Origin: a virus
Virus record (IMG/VR): IMGVR_UViG_3300044733_000695
Location: 9,029 to 73,028 of that record
Strand: one strand, 5' to 3'
DNA length: 64,000 bases
Both the position numbers and the translations under genes were made by a program. How positions within the stretch are numbered: the stretch's first letter is position 1; every line of letters starts with the position of its first letter. Shown here in pieces: positions 25,577-32,197 of the stretch. The notes under the pieces are model-generated. The model did no database searches and was not told the origin of the DNA. It was given only the letters and a program-made list of their open reading frames with translations.

Positions 25577-25859
25577 TGGCTCCAACCTCGTATCAAAACG
25601 CAGCGCAAAGCATCAATTTAGACAGCAAATTTTTGAAGCATGGGGCCATACATGCGCGTATTGCGGCGCCCCGGCTGACACGCTAGACCATGTGAAGCCA
25701 CGTCATAAAGGTGGCGCTACTGTTGCTTGCAATCTTGTACCGGCGTGCAAGAATTGCAACCGTAAGAAAGGCAGCGAGGAATGGCGCGAATGGTTTAGCC
25801 GTCAAGATTCGTGGTCTGTTGATCGCGTTCTAAAGATTCAGGATTGGTTGGTTGATTGA
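25560..25859 (+). CDS. HNH endonuclease
   Basis: CAYC...TLDHVKP...NLVPACKNCNRKK. Confidence 0.88.
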   Translation: MDHLIDGSNLVSKRSAKHQFRQQIFEAWGHTCAYCGAPADTLDHVKPRHKGGATVACNLVPACKNCNRKKGSEEWREWFSRQDSWSVDRVLKIQDWLVD

Positions 25860-25977
25860 GCATCTGATGGTAAAAAATCAGTGCTTGCCACTGCTGCCTG
25901 TGCTCTCGGCACATACCGTTGAAGCAAACCCTCCATACATCCTGATAGCGGCTGATTGTTGGTTTCGACATGGCCAA
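25795..25977 (-). CDS. Hypothetical protein
   Basis: C..GMCR...WQA motif shared with 32283-32456. Confidence 0.5.
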   Translation of the reverse strand: MAMSKPTISRYQDVWRVCFNGMCREHRQQWQALIFYHQMLNQPTNPESLERDQQTTNLDG

Positions 25978-26851
25978 GCGGGGTATTGCTTAATGGGTTG
26001 CTCATCAGCATACGAAGGCGGCTAATGCCACGACGCTCTAGGTTTTGCAGCTTGGTGCGGCTGACGCCTGTTTGTTGTTCAAGTTGCGCCCAGGTGACAG
26101 GCCGCGCAAGGTTTCTGGCATGGATTACCTGTTTGGTCAACGGGTCTAAGTATTTGTTAAAACAATCCATCAATTCGCGTATCTCTTGCCGGGTTTCTAT
26201 CAGGTCATTGTCGTAGTTAGGGTCAGCAATGTTGTCACCGATGCATGTGGTCTCGGTGTCAGCAACACGCTGGTCTAGGCTTGTCACTTTATAGGTTTGC
26301 TTTAACAAGTATGACAGTTCTTCTACATCCATATCCAGTGCGTTAGATATTTCGCTCATGGTTGGCTGTCTGCCGATCTTATGGCTTAGATCCTGCATGG
26401 TGCGGTTTATCTTGTACAGCATCTCATGCAAACTGGTTGGCAGGCGAATTATGGAGTCATGCTGGATCAATGCCCGCGTAATGCCTTGCCTGATCCACCA
26501 ATAGGCATAAGTTGAAAACTTGTAACCGCGTGACGGGTCGAATAGCTCAACCGCACGCGCAAGGCCGATATTGCCCTCTTGGATCAAGTCCATCAACTCA
26601 AGCGTCTTATTGCTGCGCTTGTCGTACTTGCGGGCTACATGGACTACAAGCTGCAGGTTGGACTTAATAAACCGTTGCCTAGCGCGTTCACCGCTTCGCA
26701 ACTCGCGTTGCTCATCACGGGTTAGCTCCCTGTCGCATTGTCTTAATTCTTGCCATCTAATGACACGCCTGCCGAGTTGTATCTCTTGTTGCGGTGTCAG
26801 TAGTGGATATTTGGCGATACTGTTGAGGTAGTCTTTGATGCTGTCGGCCAT
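25838..26851 (-). CDS. RNA polymerase sigma factor, cyanobacterial RpoD-like
   Basis: YLNSIAKYPLLT region 1.2; DLIQEGNIGL and GYKFSTYAYWWIRQGITRA region 2; divergent region 4. Confidence 0.92.
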   Translation of the reverse strand: MADSIKDYLNSIAKYPLLTPQQEIQLGRRVIRWQELRQCDRELTRDEQRELRSGERARQRFIKSNLQLVVHVARKYDKRSNKTLELMDLIQEGNIGLARAVELFDPSRGYKFSTYAYWWIRQGITRALIQHDSIIRLPTSLHEMLYKINRTMQDLSHKIGRQPTMSEISNALDMDVEELSYLLKQTYKVTSLDQRVADTETTCIGDNIADPNYDNDLIETRQEIRELMDCFNKYLDPLTKQVIHARNLARPVTWAQLEQQTGVSRTKLQNLERRGISRLRMLMSNPLSNTPLGHVETNNQPLSGCMEGLLQRYVPRAQAAVASTDFLPSDAQSTNQS

Positions 26852-27095
26852 GATGAATCCATTAGTTCACACAATGGAAGCACAGTTCCACGGCGCTGCC
26901 AACGCTAACATGTTGCGCCAGCTACATGCAGCAAAAGATTGGAATGCGTTACTTGAGTACAGCTTGCTACTGGCTGAGCAGGAGGCTAGCCAGCGCTCGC
27001 AGATTAAGTGGCTAGCTGCCGAGGCGATGCGCTCATGCAGCATCGAGCCTTGGCATTTGGCTGCGGCCGAGGAACTGCTTGGAGGCAGCCACTAG
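26850..27095 (+). CDS. Hypothetical protein (start uncertain)
   Basis: Helical ORF filling the sigma-dcd gap on the opposite strand. Confidence 0.5.
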   Translation: MMNPLVHTMEAQFHGAANANMLRQLHAAKDWNALLEYSLLLAEQEASQRSQIKWLAAEAMRSCSIEPWHLAAAEELLGGSH

Positions 27096-27587
27096 CTTGT
27101 CATTGTTGTAGTGCCCAACCTGCGCATAGCTCAGCGCTGGCTGCTGGCTCATGCGGAAAAACACCATCTGACCAATCTTGAGCCCTGGGTAAATGGGCAG
27201 CGGCTGCAGCTGACGGGCGTTTTTCAGCTCTAGCGTTAGCGTGCTGCCATTCCAGCCGGGATCGGCATAGCCGGCGTGGAGGTTCTCATAGCCCTCCCTA
27301 GCGCGGCTTGACTTCAGGAAGAACAGGCCGGCGATATCTTCCGGCATGTAAAAGGTCTCCACCGTCTGGGCCAGCACAAACTGACCAGGCACCAACTCGT
27401 ATGGATGCTCCACGGTGTAACCGCTGATGTCAAGCGGAATCATCTGGTGCCCTTGGACCGATTCGAGCATGATCAGGTTGCCAAGCCGCAGGTCCAAGCT
27501 GGCAGGATTGATCAGCTCTGGGTCATGGCCCTGCACCATCCCCTGAGTGACGATCAGGTCTTCGATTTCGGTGTCAGATAGGATCAT
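27033..27587 (-). CDS. dcd: dCTP deaminase
   Basis: MILSD, NPASLDLRLG, KSSRAREG, AGYADPGW, KIGQMVF. Confidence 0.9.
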   Translation of the reverse strand: MILSDTEIEDLIVTQGMVQGHDPELINPASLDLRLGNLIMLESVQGHQMIPLDISGYTVEHPYELVPGQFVLAQTVETFYMPEDIAGLFFLKSSRAREGYENLHAGYADPGWNGSTLTLELKNARQLQPLPIYPGLKIGQMVFFRMSQQPALSYAQVGHYNNDKLVAASKQFLGRSQMPRLDAA

Positions 27588-27807
27588 TGATGTCGATAAC
27601 GTGTTTACCAGTGCAGTGCTTAGATGCTGACCATTTCAGGTCATACTTTGAAATTTGAATTTCTGCCGGTTGCTTGGTGTACCAGCGGTGATTACACCCA
27701 TCGCAGCGGCGACGCCTAACAATCGTACCGTCAGCCAATTGATTGGTCATAACGACATACGTCTGCTGGCATGAGCAGCTAGGGCATCGGACTTGAACTG
27801 CTGGCAC
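27574..27807 (-). CDS. NrdR N-terminal-like zinc ribbon protein
   Basis: CPSC...RRRRCDGCNHRWYT. Confidence 0.7.
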   Translation of the reverse strand: MPAVQVRCPSCSCQQTYVVMTNQLADGTIVRRRRCDGCNHRWYTKQPAEIQISKYDLKWSASKHCTGKHVIDINDPI

Positions 27808-28069
27808 GTCTAACTCGGCTCATAGCATCGGACCTGAATTGCTTGCATGTATCTTCTAAATCTTGGGCAAGGACGGCAGCCGAACGCAGCAGCGTTGTAA
27901 GCGTCACCGGCTTCATGTCACGATCCGTCGCATAGCGAATGGCGTGCCTGAAGCCTTGACTGATGTTGCCGCCGCCGAGTTTGCGGGCAGCTTCAATCTC
28001 CTCGCGGCTCATGCGAATGTTCACCGTGTAGTTGCGACCGCGCTGCGTTGGTATGCGCGGGCTAGGCAT
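27779..28069 (-). CDS. Putative ribbon-helix-helix DNA-binding protein
   Basis: TVNIRMSREEIEAARKLGGGNISQGFR; close homologue at 33923-34204. Confidence 0.65.
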   Translation of the reverse strand: MPSPRIPTQRGRNYTVNIRMSREEIEAARKLGGGNISQGFRHAIRYATDRDMKPVTLTTLLRSAAVLAQDLEDTCKQFRSDAMSRVRRASSSSPMP

Positions 28070-28304
28070 TGCCCTCTAGCTCGGCAGCGATGGCGAGAAA
28101 ATGAGCGCGAATGGCGTGATGTGCGGCGAACACGCCTGCATCAGCGTCGGTGTCACCTAATGGCGTGTTCATCTGCACCTGATCCGCAGCAGCTCGCAGA
28201 GCGGCGGCAATCGCGGGCAGGTAATGCCAGTCATCCGGCTTGCCGCTGGCGGCGCGGTTGAACTCCCAGAACACTTGTTGCGCGGCAGGGGAGAGGTTAG
28301 TCAT
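28062..28304 (-). CDS. Hypothetical protein
   Basis: LSPAAQ...IAAALRAAADQV...LAIAAELEG. Confidence 0.7.
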   Translation of the reverse strand: MTNLSPAAQQVFWEFNRAASGKPDDWHYLPAIAAALRAAADQVQMNTPLGDTDADAGVFAAHHAIRAHFLAIAAELEGNA

Positions 28305-28449
28305 CCAAGGCCTCCTCCATGTCGCGCTTTACCAAATCAGCAATGCGCTGCTGATACAGCCCGGTGTAGGTTTCGCAGGTGCGGCCATAGTGGTGATACA
28401 ACCACTCCAAGTAGTCCTGCCGTTGCTGGTCAGCTATTGGGTTGTTCAC
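28297..28449 (-). CDS. Hypothetical protein
   Basis: DQQRQDYLEWLY...GRTC.TYTGL; similar to the N-terminus of 34197-34466. Confidence 0.55.
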   Translation of the reverse strand: MNNPIADQQRQDYLEWLYHHYGRTCETYTGLYQQRIADLVKRDMEEALDD

Positions 28450-28581
28450 TGATAAGCTCCATCAACTCAAGGACATGGGCCGCAAAGGCGGCATGGGTCA
28501 TCACTGCATGGGTGCCAGGAGGGCGCCCGTAGGACGCCTCCCACCACTCCTTGAATGCAGCTTCAAGGCTGGTTTGGTTCA

Positions 28582-28932
28582 TCAGAATGCAGACTCCTCG
28601 CTAGCAGCAGCAGCAGCACGCGGCAGGTATTCAAACCGGGTGACGTTCAGCACATGCTTAGAGCGCTTAGCGCCGCTCTCCTTATCCTGCCAGTCCTGAC
28701 GGCGAATGCCGCCGGTAACCATGATGCTGTCGCCTTTTTTGCAGTTGTCGGCAATCATTTGACCGCCTTTACCCCAGACCTCTACGTCAATTGCATTGTT
28801 GATGTAGTTGCCATCTTTATCTTTGCCTTCCTGAATGCCTGCACCAAAGTTGCAAACACAAGTACCGGAATCAAAAAACTTAATTTGCGGCTCGCTAATA
28901 ATGCGCACGACGCCGGAAGCATACAAACTCAT
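28582..28932 (-). CDS. ssb: Single-stranded DNA-binding protein
   Basis: OB-fold VEVWGK...KKGDSIMVTG...WQDKESGAKRSK; acidic-Phe tail. Confidence 0.85.
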   Translation of the reverse strand: MSLYASGVVRIISEPQIKFFDSGTCVCNFGAGIQEGKDKDGNYINNAIDVEVWGKGGQMIADNCKKGDSIMVTGGIRRQDWQDKESGAKRSKHVLNVTRFEYLPRAAAAASEESAF

Positions 28933-29147
28933 GGGTTGATTGGTGTAATGGAATGGGTCTCTTCAAAGGCCAGTACATCAGGCAGGTTGTACCTGACGCG
29001 GGACTGGCCGAGTGGACATCCTAGCCTCGGGACTGTGTAATAGCTAGGTCCTTGGCCGCGTAATCGTTGAGACTTAATGCTGGACGGCTTGAGGCCCCAA
29101 CGCTCGGCTAGTTGCTCAGTTGTCAGATAACTCATTCTCTTTTTCAA
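28929..29147 (-). CDS. AlpA/excisionase-like HTH protein
   Basis: [10 protein letters not shown]...GPSY...VRY. Confidence 0.75.
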
Positions 29148-29862
29148 GCATTAGTTGCAAAAGTTGATCGTGCTGCTCTTGGCTGATCTCACCGGCTTCT
29201 AGCCGTGCCGCCATACGCGGTTGCAGGTCTTCTAGATCCTGCAGGGTTTTGGCCTTAGCGATGGCCGCCTTACCAGCGGTGAACGTCTTGCTGCTGTCTA
29301 CCTTGGTGGTAGCAGGCAGCTTGACCTGCTCAGCTGGCGTGACCGTAACAGTCTCGGCTTGGTCCATTTCGTCGGTGCTGTACACACCAGACATGTCGGC
29401 AGGGAATGCCTTACGAAGCGCCAGCGCCTCAGAGCATTTGGCAATCATGGCGGCTGGCATTTTGGACCACAGCCCTTGGCCGGCGTTGTAGTCAGCAAAG
29501 CGGGCAACACCAATAAAAGGGTGTTGGCTGCCTTTGCGATGCACGATGGTCTTAGCTGCAGCGGGCGGCTTGCTGGAGAGCCATACGTCGCGCCATTCGC
29601 CTTCATCACCACACCAGTACGTCTCGCTGCCGTCTAGTTGTCCGGTGCGTTCGGCAATGGCACGCAAACCGTCAATGCCGGCCTGAATGGTCATCTTGCC
29701 GCCACGCTTGATGGCGTAAATCTGCTTGCTGAATGGGTCAAGGCCAGTGCGCTGGCACGCATAGGCGAACAGCCGCAGCTCATCATTGCTGCAGCCTGGC
29801 GCAATGGTGCTGCTAATAAGCTGCGTTTGCTCTGGGGTCCAAAGGGTGATAGCGGTTGACAT
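29116..29862 (-). CDS. bet: Single-strand annealing protein Bet (Red-beta family)
   Basis: [43 protein letters not shown]. Confidence 0.88.
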
Positions 29863-30656
29863 CAGAACTCGATGGGTGATTGCTGGTTGGCATTAAGTGC
29901 CCAGCCGGGCAGGCTGAGCGTTTGGACTGAGGTGTCGCCGTAGCCGGGCCACATGTCAGCGGCCTTGCAGGTGGCGATCACGTCCAGTGCATTATCGCGC
30001 ATGGTCCGCCCTAGTGCCATAGCGGCATGGTCCAGTTCGTAAACGGCGACCGCATACGGCGCAGTCTTTTCCACTGCGATAAACACAAACCGGCCAGCAC
30101 CGTGCAAACCAGCGAGGTAATGCGCTGCCTGGACGTGGTAGGCGAAGGTCGCCACGCTACGCGCAAACGCTGCAGGGCTGGCGTCTTGGCATGTCTTCAG
30201 GTCAACGATGGTGCTGCCTTGATACCAGTCTGGGCGGCATTTGCAGCGCAGTCCTGTTGGCAGGTCATCCCACCAGAACGACTGCTCAGCCTTGCCATGA
30301 GCGAGCAGCGCTGATGCAGCAGGATGCCGTCGGACGCTATCGGCCATGCAGTTAGCGGTCAGCATGTCGCCGGCCGTTACGGCTTCGATGCCAGCAGTAG
30401 CCATCTGCTCAGCCTGTTCCTTGCCTGCTTTGGTGTTGCGTGGCCCGCAGACGCCATAGCGGGATGACAGCTCATCAGGCTCCAGCACGGCGCAATGCAC
30501 CAAGCTGCCTAGCTTCATCGCTGCTGTCGGTTCAACCGGCAAGCGATGCGGGTCCAGATATCGCGCCCAATAGTGGTAAGGCGATTGCATTACCGCTTTG
30601 AGGTGACTGGCGCTGACGGCTGGGTCGGCGTGATAGTCGGCACTAGAGATGGTCAT
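29862..30656 (-). CDS. Exonuclease VIII-like PD-(D/E)XK nuclease (DUF3799-like)
   Basis: [32 protein letters not shown]. Confidence 0.88.
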
Positions 30657-30907: not shown

Positions 30908-31087
30908 TTACGCCAGTGCTAGACGGACGCGGTAACGGCTGATGTGCATGTGCTCCGCAATGCGGCGCTGCGTCCAGCCGTAGCCGCGCAGTCGCTTGGC
31001 GCGTTGCTCGGTTGACTCCGTTGCCCAGAGCAGAACCAGCAGTGGTAGCAGCAGCAAGGCGGTCAACAGGGCAATTGTGGTTGTCAT
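30908..31087 (-). CDS. Membrane-anchored HTH protein, 59 aa
   Basis: Hydrophobic N-terminus then GWTQRRIAEHMHISRYRVRLALA; homologue at 35390-35584. Confidence 0.7.
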   Translation of the reverse strand: MTTTIALLTALLLLPLLVLLWATESTEQRAKRLRGYGWTQRRIAEHMHISRYRVRLALA

Positions 31088-31147: not shown

Positions 31148-31399
31148 TCAAGCCCCGGCAGGTCCCAGTCGATAGCCCGGAGAAAAGATCATGAACTCGT
31201 CATTCCAGCCCAGATCCTTCACCGTGACAGGCGCAGCGGTGTAGTAACCGATTGCAGAAACGGTGACGTGCACTTCGTCCCGGTCAACAACTGCGTAGTT
31301 GATGGGATTGCGCCAATCGGCAGGATCGGCAACCTTGGCAAAAGCAGCATCAAGCTGTGCCTCAGTAAACGGAGTACCAGTTTCCTGAAGGATCAGCAT
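31148..31399 (-). CDS. Hypothetical early protein
   Basis: Probable ATG at 31399 downstream of the promoter; AFAKVADPADWRNPI. Confidence 0.6.
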   Translation of the reverse strand: MLILQETGTPFTEAQLDAAFAKVADPADWRNPINYAVVDRDEVHVTVSAIGYYTAAPVTVKDLGWNDEFMIFSPGYRLGPAGA

Positions 31400-31452
31400 C
31401 TGAAGCGCAGCCTCCGGGCTGCCGAGTGGGGGTCTTGCCCCCTGATGCACAT

Positions 31453-31480
31453 ATCCTACACCATGTGCCGCCGTGGTCAA
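31453..31480 (-). promoter_or_regulatory. Early sigma70-type promoter
   Basis: TTGACC-16 bp-TAGGAT; shares TTGACCACGGCGGCA with 959-973. Confidence 0.6.
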
Positions 31481-31499
31481 GCGTGGTGAGGGGAATGGA

Positions 31500-31645
31500 T
31501 GAGGTCAGGTAACGCCCGACCCCCGAGGCGGCCGACCTGCGTCGTCGGCGGGACTATCTCCGGCCCCTGCATCCGGCTTATGGGTGATGGTCAGCCTTCG
31601 TCGCTGACAGGACTAACTCCGGGCCATGCATCCGGCTTGTGGCTG
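31500..31645 (-). ncRNA. Candidate structured RNA: two 54-nt tandem units plus a third hairpin
   Basis: Units 31530-31583 and 31589-31642, 42/54 identical, three compensatory pair changes; TATATT -10 box at 31651-31656. Confidence 0.7.
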
Positions 31646-31725
31646 AAAACAATATACACCGTGCGCAGCGTTATCGGGGTTGATCCGGTCGCAGCGGTTA
31701 CCGTTGGCCAAGCAGCAGCCAGCCC

Positions 31726-31911
31726 ATGCGGGCGTTCCTGATCGAGATCACCGCGAAGGTGGTGCTCCGCTCCGACACTGACCCCGACGAGCTGCCAGCC
31801 AACCTCTACAGCCGCCTTTCGGAACACTTCGGCAACGACGACGACATCCTCGATCTTTGCATCGAGGCGATGCCCCTGCCGCTTGATCTCAGTGGACAAG
31901 GCGCACATTGA
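31726..31911 (+). CDS. Small acidic protein paired with HNH (phage B)
   Basis: Counterpart of 25394-25576. Confidence 0.65.
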   Translation: MRAFLIEITAKVVLRSDTDPDELPANLYSRLSEHFGNDDDILDLCIEAMPLPLDLSGQGAH

Positions 31912-32197
31912 TGAGACGCGGCTGGTCACAAGGCGCCACGCGCGCGATCAGATCCATCTGGCATGGGACTATCGCTGCGCCTACTGCGACGATCCGCTTG
32001 GGCGATCGCCCACTCTGGACCATGTCATCCCCAAGGTCCATGGCGGCCTGACCGTCCGCGAGAACCTGATCAGCTGCTGCCTTAGCTGCAACAGCCGCAA
32101 GGGCCACAAGGCGTGGCTCGACTGGTATCGCCAGCAAGAGTTCTGGTCAGCATCCCGTGAGTGGGCCATCGCCATGTGGGTGGCGGGTGAAAACTAG
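31883..32197 (+). CDS. HNH endonuclease
   Basis: CAYC...TLDHVIP...NLISCCLSCNSRK. Confidence 0.88.
   Translation: MISVDKAHIDETRLVTRRHARDQIHLAWDYRCAYCDDPLGRSPTLDHVIPKVHGGLTVRENLISCCLSCNSRKGHKAWLDWYRQQEFWSASREWAIAMWVAGEN

Follow-up and report, generated by a model that had tools for sequence, protein, structure and literature searches.

Genes and features of the locus

The window analysed here is a 64,000-nt stretch of viral DNA, bases 9029-73028 of a 73,028-nt IMG/VR virus record (IMGVR_UViG_3300044733_000695). On its minus strand, a promoter-like hexamer and a repeated RNA element precede an operon of small regulatory and recombination genes, which is laid out as follows:

31148..31399, minus strand: first downstream open reading frame, 83 aa, no family
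30908..31087, minus strand: 59-aa protein, hydrophobic helix at the N-terminus and helix-turn-helix (HTH; sub-threshold matches only) at the C-terminus
25838..30656, minus strand: rest of the operon, including the five genes below
29862-30656, minus strand: RecE-like exonuclease (Pfam, PHROGs)
29116-29862, minus strand: RecT (Pfam, PHROGs)
28582-28932, minus strand: SSB (Pfam, PHROGs)
27033-27587, minus strand: dCTP deaminase (Pfam, PHROGs)
25838-26851, minus strand: sigma factor (Pfam, PHROGs)

Since, among cultured phages, the cyanosiphoviruses S-CBS1, S-CBS3, KBS-S-2A and S-H1 are closest at the protein level, the host is very probably a picocyanobacterium. The sigma factor (25838-26851, minus strand) is group-2-like and 39-44% identical to those of S-CBS1 and S-CBS3, and the DNA of an HNH endonuclease gene on the plus strand (31883-32197) is 70% identical to that of S-CBS3.

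Upstream of these genes, minus-strand bases 31490-31644 hold 1.6 copies of a conserved RNA module. Its unit consists of a 5′ pseudoknot domain, in which a 3-bp helix (P1) crosses a 4-bp helix (S2), followed by a hairpin (P3); AAGCCGGAU and CCGGA are invariant in the 5′ domain. The window carries unit 1 (domain and P3), unit 2 (domain and P3) and a terminal third hairpin:

31651..31656, minus strand: -10-like hexamer TATATT of the upstream promoter-like site (flank type a), from the sequence
31644, minus strand: predicted transcription start A, 1 nt before P1 and the seventh nucleotide after the -10 hexamer
31619..31643, minus strand: unit 1, 5′ pseudoknot domain (sequence; covariation in relatives)
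31641-31643 with 31623-31625, minus strand: unit 1 P1, GCC with GGC
31636-31640, minus strand: unit 1 ACAAG
31632-31635 with 31619-31622, minus strand: unit 1 S2, CCGG with CCGG
31626-31631, minus strand: unit 1 loop AUGCAU
31609..31618, minus strand: unit 1 linker AGUUAGUCCU, specific to the window subtype (alignment A1)
31590..31608, minus strand: unit 1 P3, GUCAGC, loop GACGAAG, GCUGAC
31560..31584, minus strand: unit 2, 5′ pseudoknot domain (sequence; within the match 31486-31588 of the covariance model R1, described below)
31582-31584 with 31564-31566, minus strand: unit 2 P1, CCC with GGG
31577-31581, minus strand: unit 2 AUAAG
31573-31576 with 31560-31563, minus strand: unit 2 S2, CCGG with CCGG
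31531..31549, minus strand: unit 2 P3, GCCGAC, loop GACGCAG, GUCGGC
31501..31523, minus strand: third hairpin, GGGGUCGGG, loop CGUUA, CCUGACCUC, with two G-U pairs
31490..31500, minus strand: C/A-rich conserved tail AUCCAUUCCCC (by eye, unscored)
31453..31480, minus strand: second promoter-like site, TTGACC-16-TAGGAT, between the element and the first gene

A repeat search of the window returns the two units as a 52-nt direct repeat with a spacing of 59 nt and 81% identity, and a 29-position pattern of the part common to both units has two matches in the window and none in 100 shuffles. An earlier note, made from the letters alone, had quoted the two minus-strand units correctly, and its count of 12 differences over 53 nt is right, six of them forming three compensatory pairs in a 6-bp stem (GUCAGC/GCUGAC versus GCCGAC/GUCGGC). 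Just beyond the unit as drawn there, a fourth such pair joins the base before CC-AYAAG to the last base before the second CCGG; it belongs to P1, is G:C in unit 1 and C:G in unit 2, and brings the total to four (three in P3, one in P1). The third hairpin pairs as was claimed for it (31515-31523 with 31501-31509, 9/9 on the minus strand, two G-U), and TATATT at 31651-31656 does lie 8 nt before CCACAAG. What has to be redrawn is the fold, which had been given as three simple hairpins: the unit is a pseudoknot domain plus a hairpin.

Both window units carry the invariant domain AYAAG-CCGG-AU ... CCGG-A exactly, and P1 is complementary at 3/3 positions in each (GCC:GGC; CCC:GGG). The subtype departs from the majority in having AGWYAGUCCY after S2, where other subtypes have AUYCUC, and in its P3 loops (GACGAAG and GACGCAG; GACA(A/C)G in most relatives). 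Together with the preceding GG, the AGUUAGUCCU linker could form a GGA/UCC mini-hairpin, in which only loop positions vary (GUUAG, GAUAG, GACAG). The third hairpin occupies the place of P4, the last hairpin of most relatives. Its homology to P4 is uncertain; locus L187 carries both a P4 and a CGUUA-loop hairpin, and a U-to-C change in relatives converts one of the G-U pairs to G-C. The CGUUA loop has no complement in the P3-P4 linker of the window (CGCCUC), where we thus find no second pseudoknot of the kind described below. The CCAUUC motif also follows P4 in other subtypes (by eye).

The record contains the element twice. A 108-nt copy at record positions 1-108 is 100% identical to window 31540-31647; its upstream flank is a different one, in which TTGACC-17-TAGTAT keeps the spacing to the element. 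The record's two halves represent separate though related phage genomes, 65-85% identical in patches only. In other contigs the upstream flank of the window always leads to another downstream flank (5/5), the record-start flank leads to the window-type downstream flank (12/12), and the combination seen in the window occurs in no other contig found. Judging by the repeated element and these pairings, the record is probably an assembly artefact in which two phages were fused at the element they share, and a circle closed at the element would take in the first ~40.6 kb of the record. As both upstream flanks place a -10-like hexamer equally far from the element, a position downstream of a promoter holds whichever flank is the true one.

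Relatives, structure and covariation

We built a covariance model, R1, from 33 distinct relatives of the largest subtype (alignment A2), a step that had been proposed earlier, and pattern scans of viral and metagenome contigs show homologues to be widespread. In all, the family has members in at least ~122 stretches of viral contigs, in 40 of metagenomes and in one isolate, Synechococcus phage S-CBS1. True members account for 18/18 stretches found with the exact pattern in viral contigs, 5/23 new viral stretches found with a looser pattern, 69/112 further new viral stretches among the matches listed for the looser pattern (all 69 confirmed by R1, E<=5e-6), 13/16 stretches of a CCAG...CUGG variant, 17/32 of a CCCG...CGGG variant and 40/43 stretches in metagenome contigs. 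In the window R1 matches unit 2 and the third hairpin over the full model (31486-31588, minus strand, 21 bits, E=2.5e-4, filters off) and unit 1 only locally (5′ domain, 31623-31643, E=0.23), with no further match elsewhere in the window; the model comes from another subtype, which explains the modest score. Most relatives have a single unit, tandems occurring in the window type, L018, L152/L160 and L183, so that of the proposed tandem structured RNA the structure stands and the tandem, real in the window, is not the essence.

In S-CBS1 the element lies between the RusA gene and gp37 (R1: 41 bits, E=8e-9), and the predicted start A before P1 falls at about position 26,237 on the minus strand of record HM480106. 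It was found by the covariance model only, as blastn with the elements of two subtypes gave no match in 50,697 phage records. R1 on parts of KBS-S-2A, S-H1 and S-CBS3 gave nothing at E<0.1; S-CBS3 has only the 3′ part of the S-CBS1 leader and is without the 5′ domain. At this place (L299:3820-3990) S-CBS3 has a promoter-like TTGACC-17-CATAGT and the same kind of small gene as S-CBS1. R1 found no match in 151 sampled Cyanobacteriota genomes under strict filters. The bare pattern AAGCCGGAT-N6-10-CCGGA occurs at 63 places in 401 sampled Cyanobacteriota genomes, against 12 in the reversed control; none of the 63 has the family flanks, R1 gave nothing at E<0.1 in 20 of the loci, and one 24-nt version recurs in three genomes. 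These places may represent another hairpin-type repeat. A 16-base pattern matched 120 stretches in genome contigs, all of them chance by inspection.

Five helices are proposed for A2: P1 (3 bp, the bases just before AYAAG with the last three loop bases), S2 (4 bp, CCGG:CCGG, crossing P1), P3 (5 bp in A2, 6-bp stems in the window), P4 (6 bp in A2) and a second pseudoknot of the P3-P4 linker (CWGC) with the P4 loop (GCWG). In these helices 90.7% of the A2 cells are paired, compared to 32-44% with slid partners, and the covariation score is 0.307 versus 0.103 for shuffled alignments, a value reached by 0/500 shuffles. Double changes are seen in P1 (G:C to C:G in 6 and 2 sequences), at three pairs of P3, at five pairs of P4 and in the linker-loop helix (A:U 22, U:A 6, G:C 2), and the P3 stem variants of relatives, some with U-G or G-U changes, stay paired. 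RNAalifold arrives at S2, P3 and P4 on its own. S2 is invariant within A2 and changes between subtypes: it is CCGG:CCGG, CCAG:CUGG (13 loci and S-CBS1) or CCCG:CGGG (17 loci), so that its third pair is seen as G:C, A:U and C:G, and it is 4/4 complementary in 29/29 distinct 5′ domains. Scans for the unmatched combinations CCAG with CCGG (0 true of 2 matches) and CCGG with CUGG (0 true of 8) yielded no member, nor did a scan for CUGG with CCAG (0 true of 15). P1 is 3/3 complementary in 28/29 distinct 5′ domains of all subtypes, in four versions (GGC:GCC, CGC:GCG, GCC:GGC, CCC:GGG), and its register moves by one base where the loop is one base longer.

Around the P1 and S2 helices the unpaired stretches AYAAG and AU plus a pyrimidine-rich tail are invariant, P3 presents a GAC-purine loop, and some subtypes have a small extra hairpin within the S2 loop. 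The predicted loop arrangement of the P1-S2 pseudoknot is unusual, with 0 nt between the 3′ strands of P1 and S2. A pairing of UCUC in the tail with GAGA in the P3 loop was considered and rejected: the loop variants GUGA, GUUA and GAUA are uncompensated, and the geometry of a 1-nt linker makes it impossible by reasoning. In minimum free energy the 261-nt region does not stand out from shuffles (z=0.0 for the minus strand, -0.89 for the plus strand), and the case therefore rests on comparative evidence and not on stability.

One-sided changes in the helices yield U-G or G-U on the minus strand only, which marks the element as an RNA read from that strand and not as a duplex-DNA site; single-stranded DNA of the minus strand instead of RNA is less likely. 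The suggestion of a strand-specific RNA with compensatory covariation is thus borne out, all helices covarying among homologues. We considered whether the conserved sequence could act as DNA, as an operator, a set of iterons, an origin, or an att or packaging site, since the element lies in a divergent control region in the window, contains the direct repeat CCGGAT...CCGGAT and adjoins recombinase genes in some loci. However, the CCGGAT copies change complementarily and not identically (CCAGAT...CTGGAT; CCCGAT...CGGGAT), the helices covary while the loops are fixed, the G-U pairs would be C-A mismatches on the opposite strand, and conservation begins at the predicted transcription start with promoters that differ. 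We disfavour a DNA-level site and give it almost no credence. We conclude that the element belongs to a real, strand-specific, pseudoknotted leader RNA family of cyanosiphoviruses, present in tandem in the window.

The family is new to Rfam, in line with the earlier note, which could match it to no family it knew: the models of Rfam 15 give no match in the whole window at gathering thresholds, and at E<=10 the region and 13 related loci give chance-level matches only. The best of the exoribonuclease-resistant RNA (xrRNA) family models reaches 12.2 bits (gathering threshold 31, E=9.4), which is chance level. A ribozyme that cleaves itself and so trims early transcripts at the 5′ end would also have a small pseudoknotted core with invariant unpaired bases, occur in phages and sometimes stand in tandem; yet the element matches no Rfam 15 ribozyme family and its topology is, in our own reading, unlike the HDV-like fold, and we hold this explanation to be highly improbable. 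Our literature searches found no description of the motif. A 2023 survey gives 8,495 unnamed candidate structured RNAs predicted from IMG/VR (PMC10690425), among which the motif may be catalogued without description.

Predicted promoters and genomic contexts

We collected 81 distinct upstream flanks of 45 nt and set aside four chance matches and 12 second units of tandems, leaving 65 first units. TAnnnT ends 6-7 nt before P1 in 39/65, and in 17 of these a TTGnnn -35 stands 16-18 nt further upstream, one of them being a perfect TTGACA-17-TATAAT. The spacing recurs as the hexamer, 6 nt, an A and then P1. The promoter sequences are otherwise unrelated and conservation begins at the predicted +1, the A one base before P1, which is conserved in many independent contexts. 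We infer that transcription starts 1 nt before P1. Contigs from one public sequencing run, probably of DNA, cover 31450-31561 only. In the window 7 nt separate TATATT (31651-31656) from P1, in agreement with the earlier placement of the element directly downstream of a promoter-like site and with the spacing in the 39/65 flanks. The other 26/65 flanks have no -10 there; instead a GC-rich hairpin stands right after the stop codon of the upstream gene. The GC-rich hairpin GGGCACCGCCCCUUCGGGGGC just 5′ of many copies has a weak partial match to the PhotoRC-I 3′ hairpin (L210:3860-3876, L263:1954-1970, L245:603-619, L254:1-16; 18-20 bits, gathering threshold 45), a similarity that is probably chance.

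The gene after the element is, in most relatives, a 60-64-aa protein with a hydrophobic helix and an HTH. These 59-64-aa proteins, among them the 59-aa product of the window, have a hydrophobic N-terminal helix, an arginine-rich stretch and an HTH; they are without a curated family and give sub-threshold HTH matches only. Other genes in this position are small open reading frames and a 602-aa serine recombinase (L183), and in L018 the element follows an integrase. A truncated element that consists of the 5′ domain only (L167, L169, L170, L174, L188 and others) precedes a 104-aa secreted protein, RlpA-like by eye, whose start codon is ~21 nt away. The distance from the structured part to the start codon is ~16-25 nt in most contexts, and the spacer is C/A-rich with a recurrent CCAUUC (by reading). 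It is 156-183 nt in the window type with its second promoter-like site, TTGACC-16-TAGGAT, a site also conserved across 12 related contigs. In the flank-b type (L003-L020) the two promoters together contain three copies of TTGACCAYGG, which might be operator sites.

Such an arrangement could also serve a small RNA that acts in trans, or a protein decoy, freed from the leader by termination or processing. The element has its own strong predicted promoter, UUUU follows the last hairpin in a terminator-like manner in the marine relatives L151, L207 and L242, the second promoter-like site of the window type lies after the element, and units are repeated in four lineages. However, the U-tract is not conserved (L212, L227, L154), and in many loci the start codon is within ~20 nt and there is no second promoter. 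The antitoxin version of this idea recalls the RNAs of type III toxin-antitoxin systems (ToxI-like), which are tandem pseudoknotted repeats behind a promoter. The window likewise has tandem pseudoknotted repeats after a promoter-like site on a mobile element, but only 1-2 units of 57-82 nt occur, most loci being single-unit. We find no ToxN-like or other endoribonuclease toxin gene: the first two downstream open reading frames have no nuclease family, the downstream genes of relatives likewise, and no toxin-like gene follows the element. The antitoxin or decoy reading of the earlier note lacks its partner, as the downstream genes are small regulators and recombination genes, and we regard a trans-acting RNA of any of these kinds as distinctly unlikely.

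Possible functions of the leader

We are highly confident that the element is the 5′ leader of an early operon (regulatory and recombination genes) of a picocyanobacterial siphovirus, built from a conserved RNA module. For its function we tentatively favour, at somewhat less than an even chance, a cis-acting leader that seals and protects the 5′ ends of early mRNAs. The enzymes of 5′-end-dependent decay require a few unpaired 5′ nucleotides. With a transcription start 1 nt before P1, the triphosphate end would be locked into the compact pseudoknot, and enzymes that need a free 5′ end (an RppH-type pyrophosphohydrolase, the 5′ sensor of RNase E, the 5′-to-3′ exonuclease RNase J) would be shut out. 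Early phage messages would thereby be stabilised while the unstructured C/A-rich ribosome-loading stretch would stay free. After an endonucleolytic cut, internal copies (unit 2 and, elsewhere, those that follow a hairpin) would shield the downstream fragment, and the unpaired invariant bases would either keep the fold in place or serve as a docking site for a conserved host factor. Consistent with this, the truncated form retains the 5′ domain alone, and the promoters differ while conservation begins at the predicted start.

Stabilisers at the 5′ end are known from the ompA 5′ hairpin, the Bacillus 5′ stabilisers and the viral xrRNAs. The cyanophage leader resembles them in that a compact structure takes in the first nucleotides of the transcript, in its independence of the gene that follows and in leaving the ribosome-loading stretch free. 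It differs in being a sequence-invariant double-pseudoknot module and not a generic hairpin, and it has no sequence or model similarity to xrRNAs. Several observations count against sealing. In the 26/65 first-unit flanks without a -10, and in the 12 further flanks that are second tandem units, the 5′ end would be sealed only if the RNA were cut first. The second promoter-like site between element and gene in the window and 12 relatives means that some transcripts would lack the leader. The predicted fold is no more stable than those of shuffles, and the loop arrangement of P1 and S2 is unusual. Finally, the conservation of unpaired bases and the two pseudoknots exceed what a simple protective structure needs; such features are more typical of RNAs that bind a ligand or factor, which suggests a specific partner.

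That partner could be RNA polymerase. In processive antitermination the nascent leader would remain attached to the polymerase, alone as put does or nut-like with a phage protein, and let it read through terminators in the long early operon. As with HK022 put and the nut sites of lambda and P22, a phage leader RNA lies just after early promoters, stems are kept by compensatory change, and the operon that it heads carries recombination genes, here in a lambda-PL-like order of small regulators, exonuclease, RecT and SSB. The element stands at operon starts whichever gene follows, and strict conservation would suit contact with a conserved host enzyme. The linear, pyrimidine-rich AUYCUC and, after it, a hairpin whose purine-rich loop is of the GACAA type may recall boxA-boxB by analogy, and a small downstream protein has an arginine-rich stretch. 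Yet a simple scan finds no intrinsic terminators in the minus-strand operon (25.9-31.4 kb), although its criteria may miss cyanobacterial ones, and the truncated form precedes a single gene, that of the secreted protein. Unlike put and nut, the leader has pseudoknots and belongs to phages of another host phylum, and to our knowledge put and nut sites are not coupled to the exact first bases of the transcript, as P1 is. Antitermination is in our estimate unlikely, with a chance that is still worth keeping in view.

A second kind of partner would be a small molecule or a protein. The leader would then be a sensor (a riboswitch, or an operator bound by a protein of the phage or host) through which the translation or stability of the early regulatory genes is set, and possibly the choice between lysis and lysogeny. 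The combination of two compact pseudoknots and unpaired bases that do not vary is what aptamers typically show, and the setting is suggestive: a small HTH regulator after the element in most loci, the serine recombinase in L183 and the integrase before it in L018. There is a partial likeness to a guanidine-III riboswitch sequence given in a preprint, which has a CCGG:CCGG stem, a G/C-rich loop segment in a pseudoknot and GGACAAGA nearby. Compared with that sequence, the pseudoknot partner of the cyanophage leader is 5′ and not 3′ of the stem, no ACGR follows the first CCGG, and GGACAAGA is within a hairpin loop. The guanidine-III (ykkC-III) model gives no match at E<=10, and no genes for guanidine export or breakdown lie downstream. 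The T4 gene 32 leader, a translational operator mentioned in the 2023 survey, has in common with the element a 5′ pseudoknot followed by an unstructured leader on a phage mRNA, and the operon of the cyanophage leader also encodes an ssDNA-binding protein (PMC10690425). The SSB gene is ~2.6 kb downstream and not adjacent, and the element precedes many unrelated genes.

Against a sensor stand the lack of any match to an Rfam riboswitch model even at E<=10 and the failure to find a conserved terminator or an alternative helix that masks the start site (the UCUC:GAGA pairing is not kept when the loop changes, by eye). The downstream genes vary and none is for metabolism or transport, the element is found in 0/151 sampled Cyanobacteriota genomes, and the downstream HTH proteins are strongly divergent while the RNA is nearly invariant. 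With neither an expression platform nor a ligand-related gene set in its favour, the tandem riboswitch of the earlier note is not upheld, and we consider a sensor of either kind improbable, to about the same degree as antitermination.

Picocyanobacteria are major primary producers, and little is known of early gene control in their siphoviruses. An elaborate, strongly conserved RNA is tied to the predicted transcription start in >150 environmental phage sequences, and its presence in the cultured phage S-CBS1, which grows on Synechococcus CB0201, makes it directly testable. There is some small prospect, which we think doubtful, that it represents a kind of phage RNA device not seen before, with a double-pseudoknot module at the first nucleotide of early transcripts, which would be either the counterpart of xrRNAs in viruses of bacteria or a sensor of a host metabolite or factor and would gate the early lysis-lysogeny and recombination programme. 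If the leader does seal 5′ ends, recruit RNA polymerase or sense a signal, it would represent a new regulatory principle for cyanophages, and a compact, portable leader of this kind might find use in cyanobacterial engineering. Were it merely a stabilising structure, it would still be a new RNA family with unusually clean covariation.
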